DNA of 64,000 nt from an uncultured Gammaproteobacteria bacterium (GTDB lineage: Bacteria > Patescibacteriota > Patescibacteriia > UBA9570 > CAZNEH01). This document shows, one piece after another, positions 2,171 through 53,274 of this stretch. Within the stretch, counting starts at the first letter, position 1, and each line of letters starts with the position of its first letter. The position numbers were made by a program, and so were the translations under genes. The stretch lies in NCBI GenBank assembly GCA_964572175.1, contig CAZNEH010000002.1, forward strand, positions 1,406 through 65,405. The letters are read 5' to 3'. The notes beneath the pieces are model-generated. The model had not been told where the DNA came from and did not search any database. It saw only the letters and a program-made list of their open reading frames with translations.

Positions 2171-2800
2171 TTAGGCGTTAAATTTTCTAATGATTCCAAC
2201 CACCTTACCCTGAATAATTACATTCTTAACTTTAAGCGGCTCATAGTTTTTATTTCTAGGTTGTAATCTAATATAATTTTTCTCTTTATGAAATTCTTTT
2301 AACGTTGCTGACCCATCTTCTAATAAGGCGACAACAATATCTCCGTTGCTTGCATAGTCTTTTTTCTCTACTACTACATAGTCTCCATCAGCAATTAAAC
2401 TTTCTACCATAGAGTCTCCCTTAACTCTTAACAAATATGTATTAGGATTTTTCACTAACTCTGGAGGTACGGCCATAGTCTCTGTCTTATCTTCTACAGC
2501 TTCGATTGGTTCACCTGCCGTAATTAATCCGGCTACTGGTAATCGATAAGCGGCGTCTTCATCAGTGTGTGTTTCTTCCATATCTGGGCTAGTGATCATG
2601 ATGTCTCTAGCCTTATTTTCACCCCTACTTAGATATCCACTTTCTTCTAATTCTTTTAAATGTTGATGAACCGTAGACTTAGAAGATACTTTTAGTTTTT
2701 TAGCTATTTCCTCTAAAGTGGGGGAATAACCGTTCTTTTGGATGTATTTAACTATAAAATCAATGATTTTCTTCTTCTTTGGGGTTAGTTGTGGAGACAT
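2171..2800 (-). CDS. lexA: LexA repressor (S24 peptidase)
   Basis: N-terminal winged-HTH. C-terminal S24 domain has the GDSM Ser nucleophile and a downstream Lys. Typical length of 209 aa. Confidence 0.9.
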   Translation of the reverse strand: MSPQLTPKKKKIIDFIVKYIQKNGYSPTLEEIAKKLKVSSKSTVHQHLKELEESGYLSRGENKARDIMITSPDMEETHTDEDAAYRLPVAGLITAGEPIEAVEDKTETMAVPPELVKNPNTYLLRVKGDSMVESLIADGDYVVVEKKDYASNGDIVVALLEDGSATLKEFHKEKNYIRLQPRNKNYEPLKVKNVIIQGKVVGIIRKFNA

Positions 2801-5271: not shown

Positions 5272-5300
5272 TTGACGAAAGGCCCATTTTTTGCTATAAT
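5272..5300 (+). promoter_or_regulatory. promoter TTGACG-N17-TATAAT (extended -10 TGCTATAAT) for the 5307 gene
   Basis: Consensus spacing. ATG lies 6 nt after the -10, so the mRNA may be leaderless. Confidence 0.5.
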
Positions 5301-5306
5301 TAGCAT

Positions 5307-13000: not shown

Positions 13001-13878
13001 AAGTTACAGCTGACGATGGATCAAGTGGAGAGGATACAGACACCATGACTTTAACTGTCACCGCAGACAATGATGCTCCTGCTCTAGGTTCCATGGAAAC
13101 AAGTGTTACTATCGATGAAGAAGATACTCTTCTTGCCACCTACACTGCCACAGACGCAGACACTGCTTCTCTAAGTTTTACTGCTTCAAGTTTACCAACA
13201 GGCTCAACTTTAACAGATAACTCTAATAATACTGCTACTTTAACTTGGACCCCAGACTCAACTCAATCAGGAACATACACTTTAACTCTTCAAGTCTCAG
13301 ACGGCACAACTGCAGTCACTCAAAATATTACCATCACTGTAAACGACACAGTCCAAGACGAAGAGGAAGAAGAACCAGTAAACACCATCGAAGACATTGG
13401 TCTAGTCTCTGGCACAGAATCAGGCCCAGGTATTGTCACTTTATACGACAACGACAATGAAGAATTATGTTCAGTTAGAGCTTGGAACGAGGGTGGGTCA
13501 GTTCCATTCGCAGTTCGTTTCCTAGACACTACTTACGTGGCAGTTGTAAAAAATAAAGTAGGCACTACTATTCACCTTTATGATCTAAATTGTAATATTA
13601 TTGAGAAAAAGAGATTATCACCTAAACTACATCCTCGTAACATTGTCACTAGAAACTTCTTAGGTAAAACTACTTCTCAAGAAATAGGTTTAACCTCACG
13701 AAGAGGAAGCACAGTATATGGTAAGATCTTCAGATATAATCCAAACAAAGACAAATGGTACTTACTAAGACAAAAAACATTTAGACCAGTTCCAACTGGA
13801 TATAACCTAAAGAAAACCAAAAAAGGAAATATTCTCATCAAGAAAAACAATAAAACTCTCCACAAGTGGGAGATATAA
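10073..13878 (+). CDS. giant Gly-rich cell-surface protein (paralog of 33699-37490), interrupted by a single-nucleotide frameshift in a G5 tract near 10919-10923; pseudogene, phase-variable gene or sequencing error
   Basis: ORF-track pieces 10073-10984 and 11281-13878 are one gene. Frame B is open from 10921, and its translation GRIAVKYAGGDYSF parallels GRAAIYYNDASGFT in the intact paralog. Total length is 3806 nt, which is 3n-1. Confidence 0.7.
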
Positions 13879-13970: not shown

Positions 13971-14011
13971 CCCCCTCTCCACGAAGGTGGAGAGGGGGCT
14001 AGGGGGTGAGG
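13971..14011 (+). repeat. GC-rich palindromic intergenic element, copy 2
   Basis: CCCCCTCTCCACGAAGGTGGAGAGGGGG + CTAGGGGGTGAGG. Confidence 0.7.
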
Positions 14012-14022
14012 AAAGAAGAAAT

Positions 14023-15249: not shown

Positions 15250-15292
15250 TAGCTACCCTCTCCACGAAGGTGGAGAGGGGCTGGGGGAGAGG
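15250..15292 (+). repeat. GC-rich palindromic intergenic element, copy 3
   Basis: Near-identical to copy 1. Confidence 0.7.
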
Positions 15293-15326
15293 CAAGAGAG
15301 GAATCTGCATAACCTGTGGATAAAAA

Positions 15327-15366
15327 AGCTCCCTCTCCACGAAGGTGGAGAGGGCGGGGGGAGAGG
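15327..15366 (+). repeat. GC-rich palindromic intergenic element, copy 4 (tandem to copy 3, separated by a CCTGTGGATAAAA motif)
   Basis: Near-identical to copy 6 at 53235-53274. Confidence 0.7.
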
Positions 15367-15438
15367 AATTCCTAACTTTAGCCATTTTTTCTTCATGTGG
15401 ACAAAAAACTTGACAATTTTTTAGCTGGGCTTGACAAA

Positions 15439-15596: not shown

Positions 15597-18500
15597 ATGC
15601 CTACAAAAAAAACACTATCCCAGCGTCGTTATTTCTCATCATCACAAGACGCTATCCCATTGCCAAATCTAATTGAAGTTCAAAAAGCTTCCTACGATTG
15701 GTTCTTACAAGAAGGGCTTAAAGAATTATTAGACGAGATTTCTCCGATCGAAGACTTTACTGGTCGCGATTTAGAAATCAGCTTCACCGATTATTATCTA
15801 GATGAACCTCGTTTCGACGAAAAAGTTGCTAAAGACAAGAACATTACCTTTGAAGCTGCTCTAAGAGTTAACGCTGTTTTAACCAACAAAAGAAGTAAGA
15901 CTAAAAAAGAGCAAGAAGTTTATTTAGGAGATTTTCCTTTAATGACTGATCGCGGTACTTTTATTATTAATGGTATTGAAAGAGTAGTAGTTAACCAGCT
16001 GATTCGTTCCGCTGGTGTATTTTTTACCTCAGAAATTATCAAAGGACGCCGACACTATGGAGCTAAGATTATTCCTAATCGTGGTGCTTGGTTAGAATTT
16101 GAAACTGATGCTAAAGGATTTATCTGGGTTAAAGTTGATCGTAAAAGAAAAGTTGCCGCTACTTCCTTATTAAGAGCTTTTGGTTTAAGTACTGATGAAG
16201 AAATTATTAAAGCTTTTGCTAAAGTAGACACTGGTGACCATAAATTTATTACTGAAACTATTACTAAAGACTTAGCCAAGTCTGAGGGTGAAGGACTAAA
16301 AGAAGTTTACAAAAGAATCCGTCCAGGTGATCTAGCTACTGTAGATAATGCTCGTGGTTTAATCCACTCTATGTTCTTCAACTTCTCTCGTTACGATTTC
16401 GGTAGAGTAGGTCGTTATAAAATCAACAAGCGTTTTGGTTTTGATCTTCCTATTACTAAAGAAAACCGTGTTTTACGCTTAGATGATTTAATTTCTGTTT
16501 TATCAGAAATTATTCGCTTAAATAATACTCAAGACGAAGCTGACGATATTGATCATTTAGGAAACAGACGTGTTCGAGCCGTGGGTGAATTAGTTCAAAA
16601 CAAATTCCGTATTGGTTTAGCTCGAATGGAACGTATTGTTAAAGACAGAATGTCTACGACTGATGTTGATGCCTTAACTCCTGGGCAACTTATTAATGCT
16701 CGTCCAGTGATTGGGTCTGTTAAAGAATTTTTCATGTCTTCTCAGTTGTCTCAATTCATGGACCAAATTAATCCTTTATCAGAGTTAGAGCATAAACGAA
16801 GATTATCTGCTATGGGTCCTGGTGGTCTTTCTAGAGAGCGTGCTGGATTTGAAGTTCGTGATGTACATAGAACTCACTACGGCCGTATCTGTCCAATTGC
16901 TACTCCTGAAGGTCCAAACATTGGTCTAGTTGGTCACTTAGCTTGTTATGCTAGAATTAATGAATTTGGTTTTGTTGAAACTCCTTTCTTAAAAGTAAAA
17001 GATGGAAAAGTTTCTACCGAAGTAGCTTGGCTAGATGCTTTTGAAGAAGAAAAAACCACTACTGTTGCTGCCACTACAGAAGTAGATGACAACGGCAAGA
17101 TTGTTAAAGAAATGGTAGAAGCTCGAAAAAACATGCATCCTAAAATTGTAAACGTTTCCGAAGTAGAATACATGGATGTTTCTCCAAAACAAATTATTTC
17201 TATTGCTACTTCCTTAATTCCTTTTGTAGAACATGATGATGCGGTTCGTGCCCTAATGGGAACAAACATGCAACGTCAGGCTGTTTCTTGTATTAAGCCT
17301 GATTCTCCAATTATTGGAACTGGTGTAGAGGCTCGTTCTGCGATCGATTCTGGCCACGTAGTTTTAGCTAAAGAAGCTGGAGAAGTGACCAGTCTTTCTT
17401 CTCATGAAATTAAAGTTACTACTAAAAAAGGAGATGTTTATACTCACGGTTTAGGAAAATTTGTTAGATCAAATGCTTCCACTTGTATGAATCAACGTCC
17501 TACTGTTAATATTGGCGACAAAGTTAAAAAAGGCGACGTTATGGCCGATGGACCTTCTACCGATAAAGGTGAATTAGCCTTAGGTCAAAACGTATTAGTA
17601 GCTTACATGCCTTGGGAGGGCGGTAACTACGAAGACGCTATCTTAATTTCTGAGCGCTTAGTTGGTCAAGACAAATATACTTCTATTCATATTGAAGACT
17701 ACACTGTAGATATTCGTGATACTAAACTTGGGCCAGAAGTAATTACTCGAGACATCCCGAATGTTTCTGAAGAAAAATTAAAAGACTTAGATGAAAATGG
17801 AGTTATTCGTATCGGAGCTAAAGTAGCCTCTGGAGACATCTTAGTTGGTAAAATTACTCCTAAGGGTGAAACTGAATTATCTGCTGAAGAAAAATTATTA
17901 CGCGCTATTTTTGGTGAAAAAGCCAAAGACGTTAAAGACTCTTCTTTATACTTAGAACATGGTGAGCATGGAAAAGTAGTTGATATCAAAGTTTTTTCTA
18001 AAGAAGAAGGCGATAAGCTTCCTTCTGGAGTTATTAAAACCATTCAAGTTTCTGTGGCTCAGCTAAGAAAGATCCAAGTAGGTGATAAAATGGCTGGTCG
18101 TCATGGTAACAAAGGTGTTATTTCTAGAATCGTTCCTTTGGCTGACATGCCATTTAGAGAAGACGGTACTCCAGTAGATATTATTTTAAATCCTCTAGGT
18201 ATTGTTTCTCGTATGAACTTAGGCCAAGTTTTAGAAACTCACTTAGGATTAGCTGCCGAAGCTCTAGGATATAAGGCTGCAATTCCTGCTTTCTCTAGAG
18301 TAAAAGAATCTGTTATTTCAGAAGAGCTTAAAAAAGCTGGCTATCCTGAATCTGGAAAAATTACTCTTTACGACGGTCGTAGCGGAGACAAATTCTACGA
18401 ACCAGTTACTTGTGGATATTCTTATATGCTTAAACTAAACCATTTAGTTGAAGATAAGATTCACCAACGTTCAATTGGTCCTTACTCTCTGGTTACTCAA

Positions 18501-22694: not shown

Positions 22695-22723
22695 GGGCGC
22701 GGTTATCAAACCGCGCCTTTTTT
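22695..22723 (+). terminator. rpoC intrinsic terminator
   Basis: GGGCGCGG-TTATCAAA-CCGCGCC stem followed by TTTTTT. Confidence 0.75.
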
Positions 22724-22731
22724 GATATAAT
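22723..22731 (+). promoter_or_regulatory. extended -10 promoter TGATATAAT for the amidohydrolase gene
   Basis: TGnTATAAT lies 7 nt before the ATG at 22738. Confidence 0.4.
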
Positions 22732-22737
22732 AATTCT

Positions 22738-24223: not shown

Positions 24224-27200
24224 GTGAAACAAACAAAAAACAAAAAATTAGCCCATCTTCTTAGCATTATATCTATCGCTGTTATCAGTGTTTTTTTATT
24301 TAGTTCTAGCCCAGTTCAAGCCGCAGTAGTAACTTGGGAGGGAGATGAAAGCGCCTTATGGAGTGTTGGGGGTAATTGGAGTAATGGTAGTGGTGTAGGA
24401 GCCGGAGACATTGCTACTTTTGATGGTACTGGAAATACGGCTTGTACTATTGATGGCACAGCTAGTGTGGCTGGAATTGATATAAACTCAGGTTATACCA
24501 ATACTATTACTCAAGCTGCAGAATTAACGATTGGAAGTTCTCATTTCGACATTGCCTCCGGAACATTTACTGGTGCAACTCAAGATATTACTATAAGTGG
24601 GAACGTGGTTATTGCTGGGGGTATATTTAATAGTACCTCAGGAACAATTAGCTTTTCTGGAGACTGGACTCATACTGCTGGCGGAGAATGGAACGCGTTG
24701 ACAGGAACAGTAAAATTTACTGGTTACAGAGAAACTTTTAATTTTGATTATCCAACCATTGCCACCTCTGGGGTTTTTAATAATTTTACTTACGATAGTA
24801 CAAGTGACTCCGGTTCTTATGTGAGTTTATCAGGAGACACTTTATATATTAATGGTAATGCTCTTTTTTACGATGGCAGATGTTATAATGGTGCAGGCAT
24901 TCAAGTTCAAGGAGATGTTACTATAGGACCCTGGGATGGCTATGATACTACGGACGCTTCTTTAACTTTTTCTGGAACAGGAACTCAAACTTTTGATTTA
25001 ACTGGGTACACAGGTTCTTGGGATGCTCATACAATTATTGGAACTGGTTCAAATTCTCCAACAGTAAACTTAGCTTCAGATTTTATAATAAATAAAAGTA
25101 CCCAAGATTTAACCATTACTAATGGAAGTTTAAATATCGGAGCCTATGAATTAGAAGTGGTAGACGATACAAATATAGCCGGAGGAACCTTAAATGGTGA
25201 CACCGGGACCTTGGATTTGTATGATGTGATCATTACAGATGGAACCCTTAATGGAACGACCGGAGATTTTAATTTTTCCGGAGATTGGACTCATACTGCC
25301 GGCGGAATCTGGAATCACAATAATGGGTTAGTGACATTTGATGGTTATAGAGAGACTTTTAATTCCAATTATCCTACTATTTCTTCTTCTGGAGTTTTTT
25401 ATAATTTGACTATTAATAACTCAGGCGAAACTGGTGGTTATTTTTCTATCTCCACAGGAGATAGTATTTATGTTAATAATGACCTAAATTTTACTAATGG
25501 TAGATTTAATGTTGGTACATCAGTGGTTGTTCAGGGAGACGTTACAGTTGCCTCTACTTGGGATGGTTTTAACAATACAGATGCCGAATTAATTTTTGCT
25601 GGCTCTGATCCTCAAACTTTTGATCTTACTGGCGGTACCGGAACAATAAATTCAAACATTACTATTGGTACAGGATCTTCAACTCCAACTGTTAATTTAG
25701 TCTCAGACTTAATCATGAATTATGGCTCACAAGACTTAACCGTTCTTGCTGGCACTCTAAATGCATCAACTTACGAAATTGAAGTCATCGATGACTTAAC
25801 AGTCTCTGGTGGAGTTCTTAATGCTGCCTCTGCTAATTTAGACTTAGAAGATTTAATTATTACAGATGGAACTTTTAATGCACCCACTGGAACCATGTAT
25901 ATTTCTGGTAACTGGACCCACACTGCTGGTGGAGTGTTTAATAATAATAGTGGGACCGTTATGTGGGACGGTGCTGGTGCTCACACTTGGAATTTTGACA
26001 AAGCTTCATATGCTACTTCTGGTGTATTTAATAATGTTACATTTGATTGTAATGGCACGGGAACCGTATGTGGCGGAGGTTCTAATTATGTGAGCGTGTC
26101 AGCAGGAGACACTATATATCTAGATGGGGATTTAGAAATTCCTGATGGAAGAATACTTGGCTCAACATCAACTATTGAGGTTTCAGGAGATGTTACTATT
26201 GGAGCGAATTGTTATAGTTATGACACTAATGATGCTGATTTAGTTTTTGCAGGTTCATCACCACAAACATTTGATCTGACTGGTGCTGAGGCTTTATTTA
26301 ATTCTGATATATCAATAGGTACTGCAACTTCGACTCCTACAGTTAATTTGGTCTCTAATTTAACCATGGATCTTTGGGATCAAGATTTAGATATTATCGA
26401 AGGAACTTTAAATTTGAACGGATACGATATTGATTTAGATAATCAATCTGCTAATCATATTACCGTTGAAGATGGCGGAGTCTTTGCTTGGAAGGGAACA
26501 GAGACTCTAGCTCTTAATTCTGGAGACCCAATTTTAAATTCAGGAAGTACTGTCCAATATAACCCAACCACTGGAACAGTTAGTACTCAAGATTGGGGCT
26601 ATCATCATTTAGCAGTAGCCTCTACCGGAGGAGCAATTGTTCAACTTGGAACCACTGAAGCACTAGCCGGAGATTTAAGTATTGACTCTGGAACATTTTC
26701 TCTTAATGGCCAGTCCTTATCAGTGACTGGTACATTTAGTAACGATGGAGCCTTACGTTTAATTGGAACAGAAAGTCCATCCTTAACCAATGATACCGAC
26801 AGTGGAGCAATAGAATATATTGGAGACAATGATTCTGGAATAGATAGCTACACCTTAGGTTTTAGCTCTTATTATGGTCTAATTATTAATAGTAGCGATG
26901 GAGCTGATGATACTTTTCAACTAGCCAGTGACACAGATATTGATGGAAGCCTAACTAACACTGCTGGCACCTTGGATGTGACCACCAATAATTATCAAAT
27001 CAATGTCGCTGGTAATTGGGCTAATGGCGGAGGAACATTTAATCCTCGTTCCGGAGCTGTTGTTTTAGACGGTACCAGCCAAGCTATTTCTGGAACTAAT
27101 ACTTTTTATAAATTAACTAAACAAGTTGGCTCTGCAGATACTCTTACTTTACCAGCTAGTACCACTACTACTGTTTCCAATCTTTTAACTTTACAAGGAA

Positions 27201-30163
27201 ATTCTACAGATCAACGCTTATCTTTAGCTAGTTCTACTCCAGACACTCAATTTAATATTGATCCCCAAGGAGTTAGAATATTACACTATTTAAATGTTCA
27301 AGACAGTAACAACGCCAATGCCACTGAGGCAGATTGTAACAAAGGATGTTTAAGCTCAGATAATAATACCAACTGGAGCTTTTACGATATTTCTACTTAC
27401 ACCACTTCTTCTCAGGCTTGGCATTTTACAAGCTCTAGTGATTATACTTATAACTCTTCTTATATAGACATTGCCCTGGATGCTGGGGCTACTTATTCTC
27501 GTTTAAAGGATTTAGGCGGAGCAACTTATCAAGCTGCTAGCCTACCAGGGCTTAGTCATCGCAAACCAATTACTATTACTAATTCCGGATCGTCTTTAAC
27601 TGATCATCAAATTGAACTTTCAATAACTTACGATTTAGACATGCAGGCTGATTTTGATGATCTAAGATTTACCACTTCAGACGGACAAACAGAAATAGAC
27701 TATTGGATTCAAGATTATACCGCTTCTACATCAGCTACTATCTGGGTTGAAGTTCCAACTATCGCCGCCACCCCAACTGATACTACTATTTACATGCATT
27801 ATGGAAACGCAAGTACTTCCACAACTTCAAATATTGATAATACTTTTCTATTTGGAGACGATTTCGATGATGCCTCAGTAGATACAAATAAATGGACCAC
27901 TACCGGAATCTTAGAAGAAACCGGCGGGTCATTATTAATGAATGCTACCGAAGGTGTTTGGGCTACTAATTATATTGTTGAAGACGACTCTATTACTACT
28001 TTTCAAGCTTATATTGATGTTACTGGGACAAAGTCTAATCTAGGATATGTGGAAGAATCTCATCAATTCGAGGATGATTTAGATTCTGGTGAAAAAGGAT
28101 TTGACTTTGGATTCTGGACTTCCACAAGTTTATATTTTGAAAGAGGGGGAAGTACCTATGAAGAGAGCTCAGTAACTTATGGGACTGGCTGGAATGAATA
28201 TACTGCCACTTACCAAGAAGGAACTTCAATTAAATTTGAATACCCTAGTAGTTCTTTTACTGAAGACACCGCTACCTCTGTGGTCGCAGTTTCAGATGCT
28301 CCTCATTTACAAATTTATTCTTTTGATCGAGTTGATTTTAGAGCAGACTATGTATTTGTTAGAAAATATACCTCTAATACTGTGGGCGCATCTTTGGGTT
28401 CAGAAGAAGAAGTTAGTTACGATAATGTACAAATTATTCCTGTTTCAGTTCCAGCCTACGCCAATATAATTTCTTTTACAGAAACTCTAGGAGCCGCTAA
28501 TGCTGGTAGCGTGGCCTATCAACTATCTAAGAATGGAACTAATTGGTACTATCATAATGATTCCTCTTGGACTGCGGTGTCTGTTGATTCTGTGCACAAT
28601 AATACAGCTACAGAAGTAGATAATTTAATCACAAACTTCACCACAGATGTAGGTACAGGAGATTTATATTTTAAAGCTTTCTTAATCTCAAGTGGATCAC
28701 AAAAAGTTGAACTAGATGCCATAACGTTAACTTATAACGCTGTTCCTCAGGAGCCAACTAGTCTATCTCCTTCAACCACTGACATAGCTTTATCAGGTAC
28801 AGCTTCGGCTACTATTAGCGACATGATGGGATCTCACCAGTCCACTTCTTGGAAAATGCAAACTGGTTCAGATTGTTCTGTAGACTCAGGTGTAGCCTTT
28901 TCCTCCTTGGTAGATTCTACTAACAAAACATCTATTACTTATTCAGGTTTAGACTTTAGCACTTCTTATTACTTATGTGTTGCCAATCATAACGAAGGCG
29001 GCCAAGGAGATTGGCAGTCACAGTCATTTACTACTGTAGCTAATCAAGCTCCAACTGCTAGCGCTGGTACAGATATTACTATCTCAGAAGATGATGAATC
29101 TACGGCCCTAGATGGAACTAGCTCTTCAGACCCAGAAAGCCAGGCCTTAACTTATACTTGGTTAGAAACAGTTGACGCCTCAGATGGATGTTCTTTATCT
29201 AGTCCTAGTAGCTCTACTCCAACTGTTACTGTTTTAAATAAAGACACCAGTTTTAATTGTACCTTTTCTTTAGAAGTAGAAGACACTCAAGGTGCTACTT
29301 CTACGGATACAGTTAATCTTTATATCACTGCCGACAACGACGCTCCAGCTTTTGGATCAATTGCCTCTACTCAAAATATAGATGAAGAATCAGTTTTACT
29401 TATTTCCTTTACCTCTTCAGATCCAGATACTTCCTCTTTGACTCTTTCAGCCTCTAATCTTCCAACAGGTTCCACTTTTACAGACAACCTAAATAACACA
29501 GGAACATTTAATTGGTCTCCAGATGGAACGCAGTCTGGAATTTATACTGTTACCTTCCAATTAACTGATGGTGAAAATACTACCACTCAAACCGTAACCA
29601 TCACAGTTAATGATACTGTTCAAGAAGAGGGGGAGGGTGACGAAGAAGAGGAGGAAGAACCAGTTAACACTATCGAAGACATTGGTCTAGTCTCAGGTAC
29701 AGACTCAGGCCCAGGCATTGTCACTCTTTATGGTAATGACAACGAAGAACTATGTTCAGTCCAAGCTTGGAATGAAGGTGGAGCAGTTCCATTTAGAGTC
29801 CGCTTCTTAGACACTAACTATATTGCTGTAGTAAAAAATAAAACAGGTACCACTATCCATCTTTACGATCTAAATTGTAATATTATTGAGAAAAAAAGAT
29901 TATCCCCTAAACTACATCCTCGTAACATTGTCACTAGAAACTTCTTAGGTAAAACTACTTCTCAAGAAATAGGTTTAACCTCACGAAGAGGAAGCACAGT
30001 ATATGGTAAGATCTTCAGATATAATCCAAACAAAGACAAGTGGTACTTACTAAGACAAAAAACATTTAGACCAGTTCCAACTGGATACAACCTAAAGAAA
30101 ACTAAAAAGGGAAATATTCTTCTTAAGAAAAACAACAAAACTCTCCACAAGTGGGAAATCTAG
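24224..30163 (+). CDS. giant secreted surface protein (1979 aa): beta-helix-like tandem repeats, DUF2341/LamG-like region, cadherin-like (ADNDAP) domains, shared C-terminal module
   Basis: Signal peptide. Three tandem repeats of about 230 aa ([10 protein letters not shown]...GYRETFN). C-terminal 170 aa nearly identical to the other two giant proteins. Confidence 0.8.
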
Positions 30164-33637: not shown

Positions 33638-33686
33638 TGCTATAATATAAGTATGAAACAAATTAAGGACAACCCTAGGGTTGTCC
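33638..33686 (+). promoter_or_regulatory. extended -10 promoter TGCTATAAT plus a 20-nt perfect palindrome GGACAACCCTAGGGTTGTCC in the leader of the giant protein gene
   Basis: Palindrome at 33667-33686, which is 12 nt before the ATG at 33699. Confidence 0.4.
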
Positions 33687-33698
33687 ATACATATTATT

Positions 33699-36600
33699 AT
33701 GGCTCAAAAAACAAAAAAGAAGGCATTTTACTTATCTAGCGCGGTTATTATTGCAATAATCAGCATTTTTTTATTTAATTACCCCCCTCAATCAGTAAAT
33801 GCAGCCGATGAATCAGTTTCTTGTAATTCTACCACCCTAGATCAAACCGCTTTAGATGCTTTAGCTGGAGATGCTGTTACTTTTACTGACGGTGGAGACG
33901 GTATTTGTATTTTTACTGGAACTTTAGGCGCTGCTTCTGTTACTGTTAACGCTGATGTTACTTTAACTCACAATGCTGAGGATGAAGATGGATTAAGTAT
34001 TACCACTGCAGATTATTTTCTCTTAAATGGAAACATAGACGTTGAGGGAAAAGGTTGTTCTGGCGGAGAAAATGGAAGCACTGATGGTCATGGTCCAGAC
34101 ACATCTACCGGGGTTTGTGCTCAAACTACTAGTGGTTATGGTAAGAGTGGTGATAGTGGAGGGGCACATGCTGGCTCTGGTGGCGAAGGACATTATGGTG
34201 GGGCAGTTCAATTAACAACTTATGGAGACTCCAACAATTCCTCTTTACTCGGATCTGGAGGTGGAGCTACCAGTAATCCAAATACTTATGGTGGAAATGG
34301 CGGCGGATTAATTGCTTTAACAATAGGAGGAACTTTAACTGTAAACGGTAGTATAAATGCTGATGGGCAAGATGGTTATGGAACAGCGAATCGTGGTGGC
34401 GGAGGATCTGGGGGTTCAATTAAAGTGACAACTACTACCTTAGCTGGGTCTGGGGCAATTTCTGTTGATGGAGGTAATGGTAATACAAATTACTCTGGTG
34501 GCGGTGGTGCAGGCAGGGCTGCAATTTATTATAATGATGCTAGCGGCTTTACTTTAACTAATATTACTGCTGCTAAAGGTTTAAAATCTTCTGGAACTAC
34601 TGGTAATGCCGAAGATGGAACCGTTGGTTCAATTTTTATCTTAGATCAAGATTCTGACATCTTAACTACTACTACTGGCTTAGAGCTGCAAGACGGGGAT
34701 GATTACACTAAATCCGAAATTACTTTTTTAGATGGTGCTCAAATCTGGTGTGATAGCTTTGCCACTCTTAATATCGGAGCCACTGGTACCTTAGCAATGG
34801 ATGATAATACCTGGACTTGTGACAGTGTTGATACTATAAATATGTCTGCTGGCACTTGGACCACATCTGGAACCAGTACCATGAGCTTTAATAAAGCAGG
34901 TAGTCAGGTAGATTGGGATATTTCTAATAATCTTACTTTAAATAACCTAACTTATAATGGAGGATATGCCGGAATCACTAGTGCTAGTGGCGGGCTTTTA
35001 ACTTTAGATAACCCCATTGATATTAATTTAGTAAATACAGATATTATTTCTAGTGTAGACTTGGACGCTACTAATCTAACTCTAGATGCTAGCTCATCTG
35101 TTAGCGCCAAAGGAACAGGTTGTGCCGGTGGAATAACTAGCAGTACCAATGGTTATGGACCCAATACCTCCACAGGAATTTGTACTCAAGGAGAAAGTGG
35201 TTATGGTAAAGGAAATGATGGAGGAGGGGCGCATGCTGGTGCTGGCGGTCGAGGAAATTATGGTGACGCTACCCAGTTAACAACCTATGGCAGTGCTGAT
35301 AATCCATCTTTATTTGGTTCAGGTGGAGGATCTAATGCTAATCCAAATAATTATGGCGGATATGGAGGAGGAAAAGTTTTTATTGATGTTACTGATACTT
35401 TGTCTGTAGCTGGAGATATAAATGCTGACGGACAAGATGGTTATGGTTCTGGTAGTCGTAGTGGCGGAGGCTCTGGAGGGGCTTTAAAAATTACTACTGG
35501 AACTTTATCTGGAGCTGGAACAATTTCTGTTGATGGTGGCAATGGTAATACAGATTACTCTGGTGGAGCCGGTGGCGGCCGAGCTTATGTTGGCTATGCT
35601 GTTAATGATTCATTTAATCTTTCTAATATTACTTCCACCAAAGGTTTAAAATCTTCTGGAACTCCTGGTAGTGCAGTTGATGGAGGCGATGGCTCTGTTT
35701 CTACCCTTGCTTACACCGCTCCAACACAACCAACTCTTAGTCCTTCAGACACATCTCGTAACATGGCCCTAACCAGCTCAGCTTATTCTTCAAATGGTGC
35801 TTCTCATACTTCTACTGATTGGTATGTTTGTACTGATGCTGCTTGTGATGCTAGTAGCCTAGTCTGGTACTCTGAAGATGATGCTTCTAACTTAGAAGCA
35901 GTAACTGTAAATACAACTAATGGAACTTTTGCCGGCACCTTGGCTGGTGAAACAAAGCTTGCTCCAGCAACTAGTCATCAAATAAAAGTTCGCCATACCA
36001 ACGCTGCTGGTGATTCTACTTGGAGTAGCTTTACCGGTCAAAGCACTCAAGCTAATAATGTTCCAAGTGCTCCTACTAATGTAGCTCCTGCAGATGCTAC
36101 CACTGACCAATCTAAAACTCCAACCCTAACTTCTTCTATATACTCAGATTCAGACTCAGATGATCATGGAGATTCTACTTGGGAAATATATGAATCTTCA
36201 GATTGTACTGGAGATAAAGCCTGGAGATCATTAGATGACTCTTCTAATTTAGAATCAATTGATACTTCTGCCGCTGGAACCTTTCTTGATGACTATGCTA
36301 CTCCAGGAGAATTAAAAGGGCACACTGAATATTCTTGGAAAGCTAGGCACGACGATGAATATTCTGGTCAATCTTCAGACTCATCTTGTACAAAATTTAC
36401 TACCTTAAACACCACTCCAACTGCCAATGCAGGCGCAGATCAAACCGCTACTGAAGGAGACGACGTAACCCTAAGCGGGTCATCTACAGATTTAGACTGG
36501 AACGACACAGTTACTGAAACTTGGATTGAATCACTTGATTCTTCAGATGCTTGTACTCTTTCTGGAACAACGGCCACTACTTCAGATAAAGAAACATCTT

Positions 36601-37490
36601 ACACTTGCCAATTCCAAGTTACAGCTGACGACGGTCAAGGTACTACAGATACCGACACTATGACTTTAACTGTCACTGCCGATAACGACGCTCCAACTAT
36701 GGGCACTCTGGCAGACGTTGTTGTAGATGAAGAACAAGCTCTTCTTATTGCCATTTCTTCTGCCGACACAGACTCATCTTCTTTAACTCTTTCAGCATCA
36801 ACCTTACCAACTGGCGCAGTCTTTACCGATAACGAAGACACCACTGGAAACATGCAATGGACTCCAACCTCAGATCAATCAGGAGCCTATGCTGTTACCT
36901 TCAGTGTTTCAGACGGCACAACTGCAGTCACTCAAAATATTACCATCACTGTAAACGACACAGTCCAAGACGAAGAGGAAGAAGAACCAGTTAACACTAT
37001 TGAAGACATTGGCTTAGTTTCTGGAACAGAATCAGGTCCTGGTATTGTCACTCTTTACGACAATGACAACGTAGAGCTATGCTCAGTTAGAGCTTGGAAC
37101 GAAGGTGGGTCAGTTCCATTCGCAGTTCGCTTCTTAGACACTACTTATGTGGCAGTTGTAAAAAATAAAGTAGGCACCACTATTCACCTTTACGATCTAA
37201 ATTGTAATATTATCGAGAAAAAAAGATTATCCCCCAAACTACATCCTCGTAACATTGTCACTAGAAACTTCTTAGGTAAAACTACTTCTCAAGAAATAGG
37301 TTTAACCTCACGAAGAGGAAGCACAGTATATGGTAAGATCTTCAGATATAATCCAAACAAAGACAAATGGTACTTACTAAGACAAAAAACATTTAGACCA
37401 GTTCCAACTGGATATAACCTAAAGAAAACCAAAAAAGGAAATATTCTCATCAAGAAAAACAATAAAACTCTCCACAAGTGGGAGATATAG
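33699..37490 (+). CDS. giant Gly-rich cell-surface protein (1263 aa), intact paralog of 10073-13878
   Basis: MAQKTKKK signal anchor, Gly-rich repeats, cadherin-like domains, shared C-terminal module. The ORF-track start at 33681 is TTG inside the leader palindrome. Confidence 0.8.
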   Translation: MAQKTKKKAFYLSSAVIIAIISIFLFNYPPQSVNAADESVSCNSTTLDQTALDALAGDAVTFTDGGDGICIFTGTLGAASVTVNADVTLTHNAEDEDGLSITTADYFLLNGNIDVEGKGCSGGENGSTDGHGPDTSTGVCAQTTSGYGKSGDSGGAHAGSGGEGHYGGAVQLTTYGDSNNSSLLGSGGGATSNPNTYGGNGGGLIALTIGGTLTVNGSINADGQDGYGTANRGGGGSGGSIKVTTTTLAGSGAISVDGGNGNTNYSGGGGAGRAAIYYNDASGFTLTNITAAKGLKSSGTTGNAEDGTVGSIFILDQDSDILTTTTGLELQDGDDYTKSEITFLDGAQIWCDSFATLNIGATGTLAMDDNTWTCDSVDTINMSAGTWTTSGTSTMSFNKAGSQVDWDISNNLTLNNLTYNGGYAGITSASGGLLTLDNPIDINLVNTDIISSVDLDATNLTLDASSSVSAKGTGCAGGITSSTNGYGPNTSTGICTQGESGYGKGNDGGGAHAGAGGRGNYGDATQLTTYGSADNPSLFGSGGGSNANPNNYGGYGGGKVFIDVTDTLSVAGDINADGQDGYGSGSRSGGGSGGALKITTGTLSGAGTISVDGGNGNTDYSGGAGGGRAYVGYAVNDSFNLSNITSTKGLKSSGTPGSAVDGGDGSVSTLAYTAPTQPTLSPSDTSRNMALTSSAYSSNGASHTSTDWYVCTDAACDASSLVWYSEDDASNLEAVTVNTTNGTFAGTLAGETKLAPATSHQIKVRHTNAAGDSTWSSFTGQSTQANNVPSAPTNVAPADATTDQSKTPTLTSSIYSDSDSDDHGDSTWEIYESSDCTGDKAWRSLDDSSNLESIDTSAAGTFLDDYATPGELKGHTEYSWKARHDDEYSGQSSDSSCTKFTTLNTTPTANAGADQTATEGDDVTLSGSSTDLDWNDTVTETWIESLDSSDACTLSGTTATTSDKETSYTCQFQVTADDGQGTTDTDTMTLTVTADNDAPTMGTLADVVVDEEQALLIAISSADTDSSSLTLSASTLPTGAVFTDNEDTTGNMQWTPTSDQSGAYAVTFSVSDGTTAVTQNITITVNDTVQDEEEEEPVNTIEDIGLVSGTESGPGIVTLYDNDNVELCSVRAWNEGGSVPFAVRFLDTTYVAVVKNKVGTTIHLYDLNCNIIEKKRLSPKLHPRNIVTRNFLGKTTSQEIGLTSRRGSTVYGKIFRYNPNKDKWYLLRQKTFRPVPTGYNLKKTKKGNILIKKNNKTLHKWEI

Positions 37491-37500: not shown

Positions 37501-37539
37501 CCCCCTCTCCAGACGTGGAGAGGGGGTTTGGGGGTGAGG
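37501..37539 (+). repeat. GC-rich palindromic intergenic element, copy 5
   Basis: CCCCCTCTCCAGACGTGGAGAGGGGG + TTTGGGGGTGAGG. Followed by TGCTATAAT at 37548-37556. Confidence 0.7.
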
Positions 37540-37586
37540 CAAAAATATGCTATAATATTATTGTAAAAATTTACTATTTTTTATTT

Positions 37587-40393: not shown

Positions 40394-40422
40394 TTGACGT
40401 TCGGCTTTTGTTCGGTTATGAT
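40394..40422 (+). promoter_or_regulatory. recA promoter TTGACG-N17-TATGAT with an embedded candidate SOS box GTTCGGCTTTTGTTCGG (GTTC-N7-GTTC)
   Basis: 15 of 17 positions identical to the lexA box, in the same position between -35 and -10. Confidence 0.55.
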
Positions 40423-40457
40423 GTACACAGAGTTAGTTCCCTCTTAATAATTAGTAA

Positions 40458-40477
40458 AGACGCGATTAATCGCGTCT
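40458..40477 (+). promoter_or_regulatory. 20-nt perfect palindrome AGACGCGATTAATCGCGTCT in the recA 5' UTR
   Basis: Same core as the recA terminator. Lies 9 nt upstream of the ATG, with no SD between. Confidence 0.5.
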
Positions 40478-40486
40478 CAACAAAAA

Positions 40487-41494
40487 ATGAGTAAAACAAA
40501 ACAAGACTCCCGCGGTAAGGCCGCTCAAGAGGCTATCGACCAAATTAAAGAAAAATTTGGCGAAGGTTCTATTATGAAGCTGGGCGAGGCTAAGCAAATG
40601 AAAGTAGAATCAGTTCCTACTGGTTGCCTATCCTTAGACTTAGCCCTAGGAATAGGTGGCGTCCCTCGAGGTAGGATTATTGAAATCTATGGGCCAGAAT
40701 CTTCTGGTAAAACTACCTTGTCTCAACACATTGTCGCCGAGGTTCAAAAACTAGGTGGCACCGCTGCCTTCATAGATGCTGAGCATGCCCTAGATCCAGA
40801 CTACGCAGCTAACATTGGAGTGGACACTAAAAACTTACTTATTTCTCAGCCAGATACTGGGGAACAAGCTTTAGAAATTTTAGAAACTTTAGTTCGTTCT
40901 AACGGGGTAGACGTAATCGTTGTTGATTCCGTGGCTGCTCTTACTCCTAGAGCTGAAATAGAAGGGGACATGGGTGCTTCACACATGGGTCTACAAGCTC
41001 GTTTAATGAGTCAAGCATTAAGAAAATTAGCTGGGATAGTGTCTAAAACAAATACCTCTATCATTTTTATTAATCAGATTAGAATGAAGATTGGAGTCAT
41101 GTTTGGTAATCCGGAAACAACTACTGGTGGAAATGCTTTAAAGTTTTATTCCTCAGTACGTATCGAAGTTCGCAGAGCCGCTCAAATTAAAAAAGGAGAC
41201 CAAATCATTGGTAACCGAACCAAGGCTAAAGTAGTAAAAAATAAAGTTGCTGCTCCTTTTAGAACTACTGAGTTCGACATCATGTATAACGAAGGAATTT
41301 CTATTGCTGGCGACATGCTAGACACAGGCGTCCAATTTGGAGTTATTAATAAATCAGGTAATACCTACACCTATAAAGATAAAAAATTAGGAGTAGGTCG
41401 AGAAAATTCTAAAACTACTTTAAAAGCAGATAAAAAACTATTAGAAGCAGTTCGTAAAGAAGTTATAGAAGTAGTTGAAAAAGCAGAAGAATAG
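40487..41494 (+). CDS. recA: recombinase RecA
   Basis: GPESSGKTT Walker A, L1/L2 loops, full length. Confidence 0.97.
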
Positions 41495-41507
41495 AATCTT
41501 ACAAAAT

Positions 41508-41547
41508 AAAAAGTAGAGACGCGATTAATCGCGTCTCTACTTTTTTT
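41508..41547. terminator. bidirectional intrinsic terminator (long perfect palindrome AAAAGTAGAGACGCGATT|AATCGCGTCTCTACTTTT)
   Basis: A-run, a 14-bp stem, then a T-run. Serves recA (+) and the convergent minus-strand gene. Confidence 0.8.
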
Positions 41548-44271: not shown

Positions 44272-44305
44272 AAGTAAATAAAAATTAATTATTTTTTGTT
44301 AACTA

Positions 44306-44349
44306 ATTTTAACAAAAAATAGGCTACCTGTCAAGCTCTTAAAAGAGCT
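44306..44349 (-). promoter_or_regulatory. groES promoter (minus strand TTGACA-N17-TAAAAT) abutted by the 16-nt palindrome AGCTCTTAAAAGAGCT; not a canonical CIRCE
   Basis: On plus coordinates the -35 is 44329-44334, the -10 is 44306-44311, and the palindrome is 44334-44349. Confidence 0.45.
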
Positions 44350-44394: not shown

Positions 44395-44422
44395 AAAAAT
44401 GACTTCTACCAAGGAGAAAGTC

Positions 44423-45199
44423 ATGTCGACTCAAGCTCTCTTCGATCACACTGGTCGCCTCATCCCTCCTCCCAACCCTCGGTCCGGGTACGGGGTCTGT
44501 GATCCCGATCCCGAGTTCCACCTGATCCAGCCAGATATCGACTACTCAGTTCGATTAGCCCGAGCCATGGGGCTCTTGCCCGATGGCCTCGTCTGGCCTT
44601 CCGCAGCACAGTTCGCAGATGCCTGTCAGGCCCAGCTGGAGAGGCTGGGCCAAGATGAGCAGGCTCGCAACGCTCTCCACGGCGTGCACCTTCCGTTCTG
44701 CCTGCCGCAGATAGATGTTCACAACATGGGAGGCGTTCTGGACGAGGTCTTCCTGCCAGCTCTGGAGCAGGCCCTGGTGCCCCACCGCCGCTTTCGCAAT
44801 TCTCGCCAGGGCGATCTGGCCAAGATGGTTTCTACCTTCAGGGGTAGCCGCCATATTGACCTGGTCAAGAGACTGGCTCAAGAACCGATCATCGGGACCT
44901 GCTTCCCTGTCGCCCTGCAGGGGTTCTCGTCCAACGCCGCCAGAAGGCAGATCAAGGAAGTGCCTTCCAGCTGGATCCTCAGCGGGTTCGATCTGATCAT
45001 GGCCATGATTATGTACCCCGAGGTCTTTGGCAAGGGCATCAAGGTTCCGGCCATGTGGCCCCTGGCGTTCCTCGGAAAAGAAAGGGGGTACTCCTTCGAA
45101 GTCTGCACCTTCGATCCCCGCTACATCAGCTTCGGGATCATGGCCACTCACTTCTACGCCGGAAAGGCATGTTCCTCCGGACTGTCCTTCCTCGGGTAG
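44423..45199 (+). CDS. hypothetical protein (258 aa); GC-rich island D
   Basis: About 60% GC. AAGGAG SD 6 nt before the ATG at 44423. The ORF-track start at 44399 abuts the -10. No recognisable domain. Confidence 0.5.
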   Translation: MSTQALFDHTGRLIPPPNPRSGYGVCDPDPEFHLIQPDIDYSVRLARAMGLLPDGLVWPSAAQFADACQAQLERLGQDEQARNALHGVHLPFCLPQIDVHNMGGVLDEVFLPALEQALVPHRRFRNSRQGDLAKMVSTFRGSRHIDLVKRLAQEPIIGTCFPVALQGFSSNAARRQIKEVPSSWILSGFDLIMAMIMYPEVFGKGIKVPAMWPLAFLGKERGYSFEVCTFDPRYISFGIMATHFYAGKACSSGLSFLG

Positions 45200-46450: not shown

Positions 46451-46475
46451 GTTATTATTATAGCATAAAAAGTAA

Positions 46476-46495
46476 AGACGAGGCATGCCTCGTCT
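46476..46495 (+). promoter_or_regulatory. 20-nt perfect palindrome AGACGAGGCATGCCTCGTCT in the 5' leader, same family as the recA-flanking palindromes
   Basis: Shared context AGTAAAGACG-N10-CGTCTCAAAAAAT-ATG. Confidence 0.5.
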
Positions 46496-46503
46496 CAAAA
46501 AAT

Positions 46504-47739
46504 ATGGACCAAAAAAAATCAAATCTAGCCAATATTTGGCTAATTAGCGTTGTCGTTATCATTGTCTTATTATTAGTCATTTGCACTGGCTATTATTTAT
46601 GGGCTAATGAAAAAAACCAAACCATTGCCCCCATTAACATTAACACTGAAGAAGATTTATCCGCCGCAGCTTCAGCGGAGGCGGAGGTTATTTCCGAAGA
46701 CTTTTTAGCTTATTTTAAGGTCAGAAACGAAGATGATGTAGAAATTTATCGAGTGGACAAAGATGGAGAAACTAATTTAATTAAAACTTATAACGAAGAC
46801 TTGGGAGATAGAGTGGCCTTAACTTATCTATTAAATAACCCAGACATCTATATTTCTGGTTTGGGAGAAAACGAATATACTGTGATCGACTCTTCTGGCT
46901 CAGATATTAGTTCAGAGTATCCTTATTTTAAAAAGAAAAACTTTGACGTTACTAACTATGTTAAAGTTCCAGGCTATGAAAGACTAGTTTATTCTTTAGG
47001 TCCTGGTCAAGATCAATTAGAAGGCAAGCCTTTAATTGTGTCTGCCTATGATCACAGCACCATCGACTATATTGAAACAGAGGAAATCCCAAATACTATT
47101 ATTAGTAACCGTCCTTTTGCCTGGTCTAACGACGAACAAGATTTATATGTTACCAAAGTTGGCTGGGAATGCTTTGATCACGCTGATCTATGGAAGGTTC
47201 GCTTTGACTCCAAAGAAGTGACCCACTTAGACCAAGCTGATCAACTAGCTTTAGGAGAGCTAAGTGTTAATCCTGATCAAGATTTGGCCGTGGGTATAGA
47301 AATGGCCGAAGTTCCTTGCACTGAATGCATGTGCGGCACTAGAGGCGGCGCTCCTTCTGCTATTTATTCCTTTAATTTAGCAGACAATACCTATCAAGAA
47401 GTATTAGTGAGCGAAGATCGTCTCTTATACAACATTGCCTTATCTCCAGATGGTCAAAAAATATTTTACTTAGAAAGTATTTCTGAATTTGGAGCCTCTG
47501 GAGACCTTTACATGGCTAATATCGATGGTTCAGATGAGCAAAAAATTGCCGAAGACACTCTTTTACAAGCCATGTCTGAAGATGGAAGCATTATCATCAT
47601 TGGTACTAATAATTACACTTTAATGAATTTATCTGATGACACCGAAGTCTCCTTAACTGCTGACAGCTTAACTGATGATTCCGTAACCAGCTTTATTAAT
47701 TGTAACTATCCTCTAGGATTTAGTTGTTTATACGAATAA
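46504..47739 (+). CDS. hypothetical secreted/anchored protein with TolB-like beta-propeller repeats
   Basis: N-terminal TM/signal. Repeated SPDGQKIFY/DGSDEQ blades. Confidence 0.6.
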   Translation: MDQKKSNLANIWLISVVVIIVLLLVICTGYYLWANEKNQTIAPININTEEDLSAAASAEAEVISEDFLAYFKVRNEDDVEIYRVDKDGETNLIKTYNEDLGDRVALTYLLNNPDIYISGLGENEYTVIDSSGSDISSEYPYFKKKNFDVTNYVKVPGYERLVYSLGPGQDQLEGKPLIVSAYDHSTIDYIETEEIPNTIISNRPFAWSNDEQDLYVTKVGWECFDHADLWKVRFDSKEVTHLDQADQLALGELSVNPDQDLAVGIEMAEVPCTECMCGTRGGAPSAIYSFNLADNTYQEVLVSEDRLLYNIALSPDGQKIFYLESISEFGASGDLYMANIDGSDEQKIAEDTLLQAMSEDGSIIIIGTNNYTLMNLSDDTEVSLTADSLTDDSVTSFINCNYPLGFSCLYE

Positions 47740-53222: not shown

Positions 53223-53234
53223 AATATATTTCTT

Positions 53235-53274
53235 AGCTCCCTCTCCACGAAGGTGGAGAGGGCGGGGGGAGAGG
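53235..53274 (+). repeat. GC-rich palindromic intergenic element, copy 6
   Basis: CCCTCTCCACGAAGGTGGAGAGGG + CGGGGGGAGAGG. Confidence 0.7.

Follow-up and report, generated by a model that had tools for sequence, protein, structure and literature searches.

The recA gene of an uncultured bacterium, deposited as a Gammaproteobacteria bacterium and placed by GTDB in the Patescibacteriota, lies between two copies of the same perfect 20-bp palindrome, and a related palindrome precedes another gene downstream. What are these palindromes, and do they control recA? The DNA analysed, here called the window, is a stretch of 64,000 nt from contig CAZNEH010000002.1 (assembly GCA_964572175.1, positions 1,406 to 65,405). 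A preliminary description took the palindromes for leader hairpins acting in translational control or RNA stability, or for the operator of a dimeric DNA-binding protein reused as a terminator. The comparisons reported here indicate that all three are very probably copies of a "double foot" GTAG repetitive extragenic palindrome (REP), the kind associated with REP-associated tyrosine transposases (RAYTs, or TnpA_REP) of subclass 2.4. The copy 3' of recA would form a terminator stem, and the two copies placed 5' of genes would be tolerated insertions.

Three palindromes of one family

All three palindromes were found where the preliminary description had placed them. AGACGCGATTAATCGCGTCT occupies 40458-40477, and the recA ATG (40487) follows after 9 nt (CAACAAAAA). 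This 20-mer recurs at 41517-41536, within a GTAG...CTAC unit (41513-41540) and a 38-nt perfect palindrome (41508-41545), and AGACGAGGCATGCCTCGTCT lies at 46476-46495, 8 nt 5' of the ATG at 46504. The sequence AGACGCGATTAATCGCGTCTC, 21 nt long, is identical on either side of recA, about 1 kb apart. The gene and the three copies, with their feet (the outermost 4 nt), are as follows.

40454..40481, degenerate REP GTAA-AGACGCGATTAATCGCGTCT-CAAC in the predicted recA 5' untranslated region, one substitution per foot
40487..41494, + strand, recA (335 aa); Pfam finds RecA domains in its homologues, which their sources call recombinase RecA
41513..41540, canonical 28-nt double-foot REP GTAG-AGAC-GCGATTAATCGC-GTCT-CTAC; the identical 28-mer is found with unrelated flanks in dozens of contigs and inside a RAYT gene (L252:1490-1517)
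46472..46499, degenerate REP variant GTAA-AGAC-GAGGCATGCCTC-GTCT-CAAA, with a core different from that of the recA copies

The view that the palindromes form a single hairpin family was borne out, as all three have the arms of the family around a self-complementary 12-nt core, one with canonical and two with degenerate feet. The copy at 41513-41540, with its GTAG and CTAC feet and 14 perfect pairs, has the ends of a double-foot GTAG REP. The pattern AGACG-N10-CGTCT gave three matches in the window against a mean of 0.78 in shuffled sequence, and at least three in 2 of 100 shuffles, which is a weak test alone; the repetition of AGACGCGATTAATCGCGTCT is considered to be beyond chance because the exact 20-mer is repeated and recurs in hundreds of unrelated contigs. 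The three window copies (three per 64 kb) are all intergenic, and relatives have 0-2 copies per 5-21 kb.

Distribution and anatomy of the repeat

The exact 20-mer was found in at least 120 metagenome stretches and in 38 viral contigs, sometimes with 4-9 copies per contig. Outside the 20-mer only GTAG on the left and CTAC (or GTAC) on the right are conserved, the other flanks being unrelated. Matches in plasmids were all in filamentous cyanobacteria, Nostocales plasmids among them, with exact 28-mers in Calothrix and Kovacikia, and a collection of annotated phages gave no match. The cyanobacterial motif HIP1 is abundant in only about 34 of 161 loci, and the remaining loci range from 26 to 57% G+C. 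About half of the instances lie inside long open frames. Proteins with in-frame copies include GyrA, RecJ, a histidine kinase, restriction-modification enzymes, and phage tape-measure and capsid proteins, and the in-frame inserts translate as VETRLIASL or RDAINRVST. In one contig (L123:759-778) the REP lies in the V1 region (a helix) of a complete bacterial 16S rRNA gene (685-2198).

The canonical unit reads GTAG-AGAC-[12-nt self-complementary core]-GTCT-CTAC, a palindrome of 28 nt, and repeat units span 27-30 nt (9-10 residues). In the fetched loci the family follows GTAS-AGAC-[12 or 13 nt]-GTCT-STAC, with at least 21 distinct 12-nt cores; the sequence of the core varies between copies yet remains self-complementary. 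Of 13 independent cores, 10 were self-complementary even in their central 4 nt, where chance would give 1 in 16; the symmetry therefore belongs to the DNA itself and not to an RNA stem alone. Among 195 non-redundant instances, 15 had flanks that continued the pairing by 7 bp or more, the longest by 24 bp, where about 1.6 such instances were expected; such copies form the tip of a longer hairpin, like the recA terminator described below. The whole may be written as a GT[AG]G foot, an AGAC arm, a variable self-complementary core of 12-13 nt, a GTCT arm and a C[TC]AC foot.

The gyrA genes of two Parcubacteria-like contigs (L155:4023-4050 and L249:1016-1043) have a REP at the same codon, with identical arms and different cores (GTAGAGAC-GCGATTAATCGC-GTCTCTAC and GTAGAGAC-GGGGCATGCCCC-GTCTCTAC). 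This site is empty in the homologues P0123 and P0124, which are about 10 residues shorter there. From these sequences, either the core would turn over in place or the site would have been hit repeatedly. Comparison of flanks yielded a single difference, between two related viral contigs: a 25-nt palindrome-bearing unit occurs three times in tandem in one (L217:996-1065) and once in the other (L224:1592).

A DNA uptake sequence of the Neisseria type was considered and rejected, as GTAGAGAC, GTAAAGAC and related words occur just a few times in the 64 kb. No Rfam family reached threshold in the window, where sub-threshold matches fell only on the terminator.

The repeat inside RAYT genes

Subclass 2.4 of TnpA_REP (RAYT group 4) is characterized by the motifs NH[IFV]H, WQ and YIxNNP, and its cognate REPs have a "double foot", 5' GT[AG]G and 3' C[TC]AC (Quentin et al., 2018, PMC6006769). 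Unique to this subclass is the presence of REPs in frame within the tnpA_REP genes themselves, in the stretch that separates HuH from Y (PMC6006769). A motif search for HUH-Y1 proteins among the fetched loci identified an ORF (open reading frame) in L143 that carries the element immediately past its HuH motif. This ORF has 6768 homologues at E ≤ 1e-5, named in their source REP-associated tyrosine transposase or RayT, from Patescibacteria, Gracilibacteria, Parcubacteria, Moraniibacteriota, Microgenomates, Bacteroidota, Ignavibacteria and Calditrichota. Among the best 120 of the 6768, the strict element-encoded peptide was present in 82, at a median of 12.5 residues after HuH, and the others have mostly degenerate versions of it; RDAINRVST, which is the translated window palindrome, was found in 46. 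The RAYT gene of a Patescibacteria contig, L252, contains the exact 28-mer of the recA terminator, and those of L251 and L253/L254 have other cores at the equivalent place. The arrangement peculiar to subclass 2.4, a repeat in frame between HuH and Y, is thus the one seen here.

It is believed that a HUH-tyrosine transposase spreads double-foot REPs in the form of single-stranded DNA hairpins. The authors of the classification proposed that the double foot could derive from a central deletion of an inverted REP dimer (PMC6006769), which would explain the perfect symmetry. The two recA copies are probably identical simply through sharing the commonest core type, GCGATTAATCGC, with no functional coupling between them.

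The recA locus in related genomes

The window RecA is at most 83% identical to any other protein, and its named homologues are from Patescibacteria. The closest relatives, obtained by protein search and contig look-up, are L081, L086, L087 and L088 (RecA 80-83% identical); the best relatives among species-representative genomes (73-77%) are too distant for alignment of the leader. The gene order is ftsK, a gene with an HTH_25 domain and recA, followed on the minus strand by two small membrane-protein genes and groEL-groES, and further on by a Wzy_C-like gene. In the four syntenic relatives recA starts 8-37 nt after the HTH_25 gene. The hairpin was not found at recA, either 5' or 3', in any of the four, and each has 3' of recA a different, ordinary terminator hairpin unrelated to the element.

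Members of the family occur elsewhere in these relatives: TAAAACAGTAGAGACGCGATTAATCGCGTCTCTACTGTTTTA between convergent genes (L087:20776-20817), the exact 20-mer 5' of a diacylglycerol-kinase-like gene (L086:16168), and the same outer arms with another core (AAGGCAATGCCTT) adjoining a tRNA gene (L081:17617-17655). Presence and absence at orthologous sites, as expected of a mobile element, is thus observed both at recA and at gyrA. The preliminary description was to be abandoned if only three copies existed, without positional conservation in related genomes; conservation of position is indeed absent in the four relatives, yet far more than three copies exist elsewhere.

The copy 3' of recA as a probable terminator

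Another part of the earlier proposal, a bidirectional terminator after recA, looks right from a terminator scan and from the folds of both strands.

41508..41545, both strands, REP extended by A5/T5 to a 38-nt perfect palindrome, predicted bidirectional intrinsic terminator

On one side of this palindrome is the recA stop (41494), on the other that of the convergent minus-strand gene (41562). The scan matched it on both strands, its RNA folds have energies of -26.2 and -29.0 kcal/mol (z-scores -8.9 and -8.3), and counting A5/T5 the stem has 19 perfect pairs, with T-rich tails on either strand. A GC-containing stem and a U-tract 3' of the stop, the marks of a Rho-independent terminator, are therefore present in both directions; on the plus strand they are not present at the 40458 or 46476 copies. 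This copy most likely acts as a bidirectional intrinsic terminator between recA and the convergent groES-groEL operon. The repeat would supply the whole stem, because only A5/T5 is left once the 28-mer is removed.

The copies 5' of recA and of the 46504 gene

Two features were predicted in the recA promoter region.

40394..40422, + strand, predicted recA promoter of sigma-70 type, TTGACG, 17-nt spacer, TATGAT (promoter scan, 10/12 matches)
40399..40415, + strand, probable LexA (SOS) box GTTCGGCTTTTGTTCGG, in the spacer of the recA promoter

Transcription is predicted to start near 40429, so that the REP would span roughly +26 to +53 of the 5' untranslated region. The predicted leader structure contains the hairpin and leaves the AUG and its A-rich flanks unpaired; the terminator scan found no U-tract after the 40458 hairpin on the plus strand. 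The other 5' copy lies in a 53-nt divergent spacer between the Wzy_C-like gene (minus strand) and the gene starting at 46504 (plus strand).

46457..46465, - strand, extended -10 (TGCTATAAT) of the Wzy_C-like gene (Wzy_C Pfam domain), 6 nt 5' of its ATG (46450)
46504..47739, + strand, gene encoding 411 aa, with a hydrophobic segment at the N terminus of the protein, and starting 8 nt 3' of the core palindrome 46476-46495

The 46504 protein had just a weak match to DUF5050, under the Pfam cut-off. The core of this copy, GAGGCATGCCTC, is of the same CATG-centred 12-nt type as the family cores AAGGCATGCCTT and AGGGCATGCCCT, and its T-rich tail is on the minus strand only, where no gene ends. The position of the -10 box implies a leaderless mRNA for the Wzy_C-like gene, and the REP would therefore lie upstream of that promoter. 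TATAAT boxes ending 6 nt 5' of start codons were noted at 5284-5306, 22718-22737 and 46451-46465 (-), two of the three being of the extended type TGnTATAAT; such boxes, a few nt before the ATG, suggest leaderless mRNAs in several window genes.

The two 5' copies have most likely inserted into very short spacers and been tolerated there because the initiation region, which is A-rich and without a Shine-Dalgarno (SD) sequence, would stay unpaired. They might at most be generic stem-loops affecting mRNA stability.

It is unlikely that they are dedicated leader RNA elements that govern recA and the 46504 gene as a small post-transcriptional regulon, through translation initiation or mRNA half-life, although both copies lie 8-9 nt 5' of an ATG in similar flanks, their stems are predicted to be stable in RNA with the AUG unpaired, and a role in post-transcriptional control has been suggested for REPs located at ORF 5' ends (Di Nocera et al., 2013, PMC3733652). 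The same sequence serves elsewhere as a terminator and as an insert in ORFs and in an rRNA gene; no hairpin precedes recA in the four syntenic relatives, and no Rfam family corresponds to it. An RNA loop does not need the palindromic centre found in most independent cores, and in spacers of 94 nt (recA) and 53 nt any insert ends up near a start codon. That no SD separates hairpin and start codon, as correctly noted before, is unremarkable because most window genes are without an SD core: it is absent in 25 of the 33 genes with credible starts, and present in only about one quarter of the genes. Likewise, the context shared by the two leaders does exist, but it is accounted for by degenerate element feet (GTAA for GTAG; CAAC or CAAA for CTAC) and by the A-rich leaders typical of this genome. 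The proposed family of leader hairpins thus gives way to a dispersed REP-type repeat, found between convergent genes, upstream of genes, in ORFs and in a 16S rRNA gene, in many organisms, and specific neither to leaders nor to a regulon.

About as doubtful is a co-option of REPs near genome-maintenance genes, by which a subclass-2.4 RAYT or a host factor would bind the recA leader and terminator hairpins, as single-stranded DNA or RNA, and couple the fate of recA mRNA or local DNA processing to REP activity; in a related scenario, the 28-mer borne by RAYT ORFs would have been seeded across phyla, from cyanobacteria and phages to DNA-importing bacteria of the candidate phyla radiation (CPR). 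Co-option would fit the puzzling enrichment of REPs within or close to genes of replication and repair (here gyrA and recJ; uvrA, recB and polA in PMC3733652).

The probable SOS box and the operator hypothesis

That the palindrome is the operator of a dimeric DNA-binding protein, such as the SOS repressor, reused after recA, is very unlikely. Its perfect two-fold symmetry and the location of the sites beside recA and a divergent promoter region would agree with an operator, but the recA and lexA promoters have another box in common.

2171..2800, - strand, lexA (Pfam LexA_DNA_bind, E = 1e-17; Peptidase_S24, E = 2.4e-32)
2840-2856, - strand, second GTTCGG-N5-GTTCGG box, GTTCGGTTTCTGTTCGG, in the lexA promoter

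When up to two mismatches were allowed, GTTCGG-N5-GTTCGG had just two matches in the window, both exact, one in the recA and the other in the lexA promoter. In both promoters the box lies within the -35/-10 spacer. A similar box (GTACGGCTTTTGTTCGG) occurs in a promoter-like site 5' of recA in another Patescibacteria genome (L067), making this a candidate Patescibacteria SOS box of the direct-repeat type. The promoter box, rather than the palindrome, is most likely the SOS operator of recA, because within the window it recurs solely in the lexA promoter, from which the palindrome is absent. Moreover, the copy before recA is within the transcribed leader, downstream of the promoter; conservation is limited to the outer arms, and the core varies freely (21 distinct cores); the same 28-mer occurs within ORFs of unrelated organisms; and the double foot of a REP explains the symmetry better. 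Regulation of recA would then reside in the promoter with its LexA box and not in the hairpin.

Weakest of all, and extremely improbable, is the idea that the copies bracketing recA form a recombination module (for its excision or inversion) or result from local duplication, for although two copies of a palindrome can be read as direct and as inverted repeats and the 21-nt identity flanks one gene, recA is syntenic in all the relatives without the repeats, identity is explained by the commonest core of a dispersed family, ORF scans of the window found no recombinase gene nearby, and the shared length is at or below that usually needed for homologous recombination.

Several observations weigh against the assignment of the window copies to double-foot REPs. 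No Y1_Tnp Pfam match was obtained among the scanned ORFs of the window, and a six-frame motif search of all 64 kb yielded no RAYT-like HuH-Y ORF; some genomes are known to have REPs without a RAYT (PMC6006769). The 46476 core was not found in viral contigs or among the fetched loci. No empty alleles were found for the phage tape-measure insertion, nor by comparing all flanks against all, and there is accordingly no pair of empty and filled sites at nucleotide resolution from these two sources. Finally, both 5' copies have the same kind of degenerate feet at nearly equal distances (9 and 8 nt) from a start codon, and this likeness could come from selection rather than chance.

What is removed by the REP assignment is an apparent recA-specific control element, and hairpins of this kind should be annotated as REP-type repeats and not as riboregulators or operators. 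The real control signal of recA in the window would be the LexA box of its promoter.

Other features of the window

A second family of hairpin repeats, CCCTCTCCAC-GAAG-GTGGAGAGGG followed by GCTGGGGGAGAGG, has six copies in the window.

2904-2945, second repeat family
13971-14012, second repeat family
15256-15296, second repeat family
15331-15370, second repeat family
37501-37540, second repeat family
53225-53262, - strand, second repeat family

These are often directly 5' of start codons (2943, 14023, 53222) or just past the end of a gene, and CCCTCTCCAC... matched nothing in the plasmid collection.

Three very large surface-protein genes (11281-13878, 24224-30163 and 33681-37490) share about 270 bp at their 3' ends, with more than 95% DNA identity, which suggests recent gene conversion of a common C-terminal domain.

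About 13565-13835, shared 3' stretch of the first surface-protein gene
About 29850-30120, shared 3' stretch of the second
About 37177-37447, shared 3' stretch of the third

Perfect palindromes of the form GGACAA-N8-TTGTCC occur at 33667-33686, 12 nt 5' of a surface-protein ATG (33699), and between groES and groEL of a relative (L087:13542-13561). The upstream region of groES in the window contains a 13-bp inverted repeat, TATTTTTTGTTAA-N6-TTAACAAAAAATA (44290-44321), which is not CIRCE (the controlling inverted repeat of chaperone expression) and could be a heat-shock operator. The stretch 44399-45199 encodes a 266-aa ORF with 59% G+C between flanks of 32-34% G+C; it has no Pfam match, is absent from this place in relatives, and looks like foreign DNA. 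In L081 an unrelated stretch (17240-17520) appeared GC-rich by eye.

Comparison with known systems

As an intrinsic bidirectional terminator, 41508-41545 resembles known examples in its GC-containing stem, its flanking runs of A and T and its location between convergent genes. It differs in that the stem comes wholly from a repeat element, whereas the stems of the recA terminators of relatives are idiosyncratic.

Classical GTAG REPs have been described in eight phyla, mostly between convergent or unidirectional genes, and have been proposed to be terminators or mRNA stabilisers; intragenic copies are found notably in replication and repair genes, including uvrA, recB and polA (Di Nocera et al., 2013, PMC3733652). 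GTAG REPs and REPINs (hairpin-forming REP doublets) share with the element a short (20-40 bp), GTAG-tagged palindrome of mainly intergenic location (PMC3733652; Bertels and Rainey, 2011, PMC3116915), and in-frame intragenic copies are also common to GTAG REPs (PMC3733652). Classical REPs have, however, an unpaired GTAG at one end, an imperfect stem and a loop of 2-5 nt, whereas here the palindrome stays perfect across its centre. For REPIN-RAYT systems mostly vertical inheritance has been described; the present element is identical base for base across phyla.

Tolerated in-frame copies are also known for the Rickettsia palindromic elements (RPEs), of which RPE-1 is about 100-150 bp in size. 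RPEs, like the element here, are selfish palindromes inserted in frame in protein-coding genes, but RPE-1 is a longer palindromic insertion than the 27-30 nt unit (RPEs as cited in PMC3733652). The cyanobacterial small dispersed repeats SDR4-6 (Elhai et al., 2008, Genome Res 18:1484) are similar in being mobile repeats of 21-27 nt in Nostocaceae, reported to be inserted precisely at defined sites; they are reported to be restricted to Nostocaceae, whereas the present element is far more widespread.

Searches of the literature by element sequence and by encoded peptide gave no match, and no link of REPs or RAYTs to the CPR was present among the top search results. The host group of the element therefore appears new, while the kind of element is already known. 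Double-foot REPs and subclass-2.4 RAYTs occur in the streamlined genomes of Patescibacteria, where a copy can form an entire terminator stem and others lie in frame in essential genes. This is useful for the annotation of CPR genomes, in which the element's peptides and hairpins recur, and is incremental for REP/RAYT biology.

The closest system is that of the double-foot REPs (PMC6006769), with which the element shares the GT[AG]G and C[TC]AC feet flanking a fully paired long stem, RAYTs with the motifs NH[IFV]H, WQ and YIxNNP, and a distribution in Cyanobacteria, Bacteroidetes and scattered phyla. It differs in its hosts, which include Patescibacteria/CPR and cyanophage-like contigs, the word Parcubacteria being absent from the text of PMC6006769, and in the window itself, where no RAYT accompanies the repeats and two of the three copies have degenerate feet.

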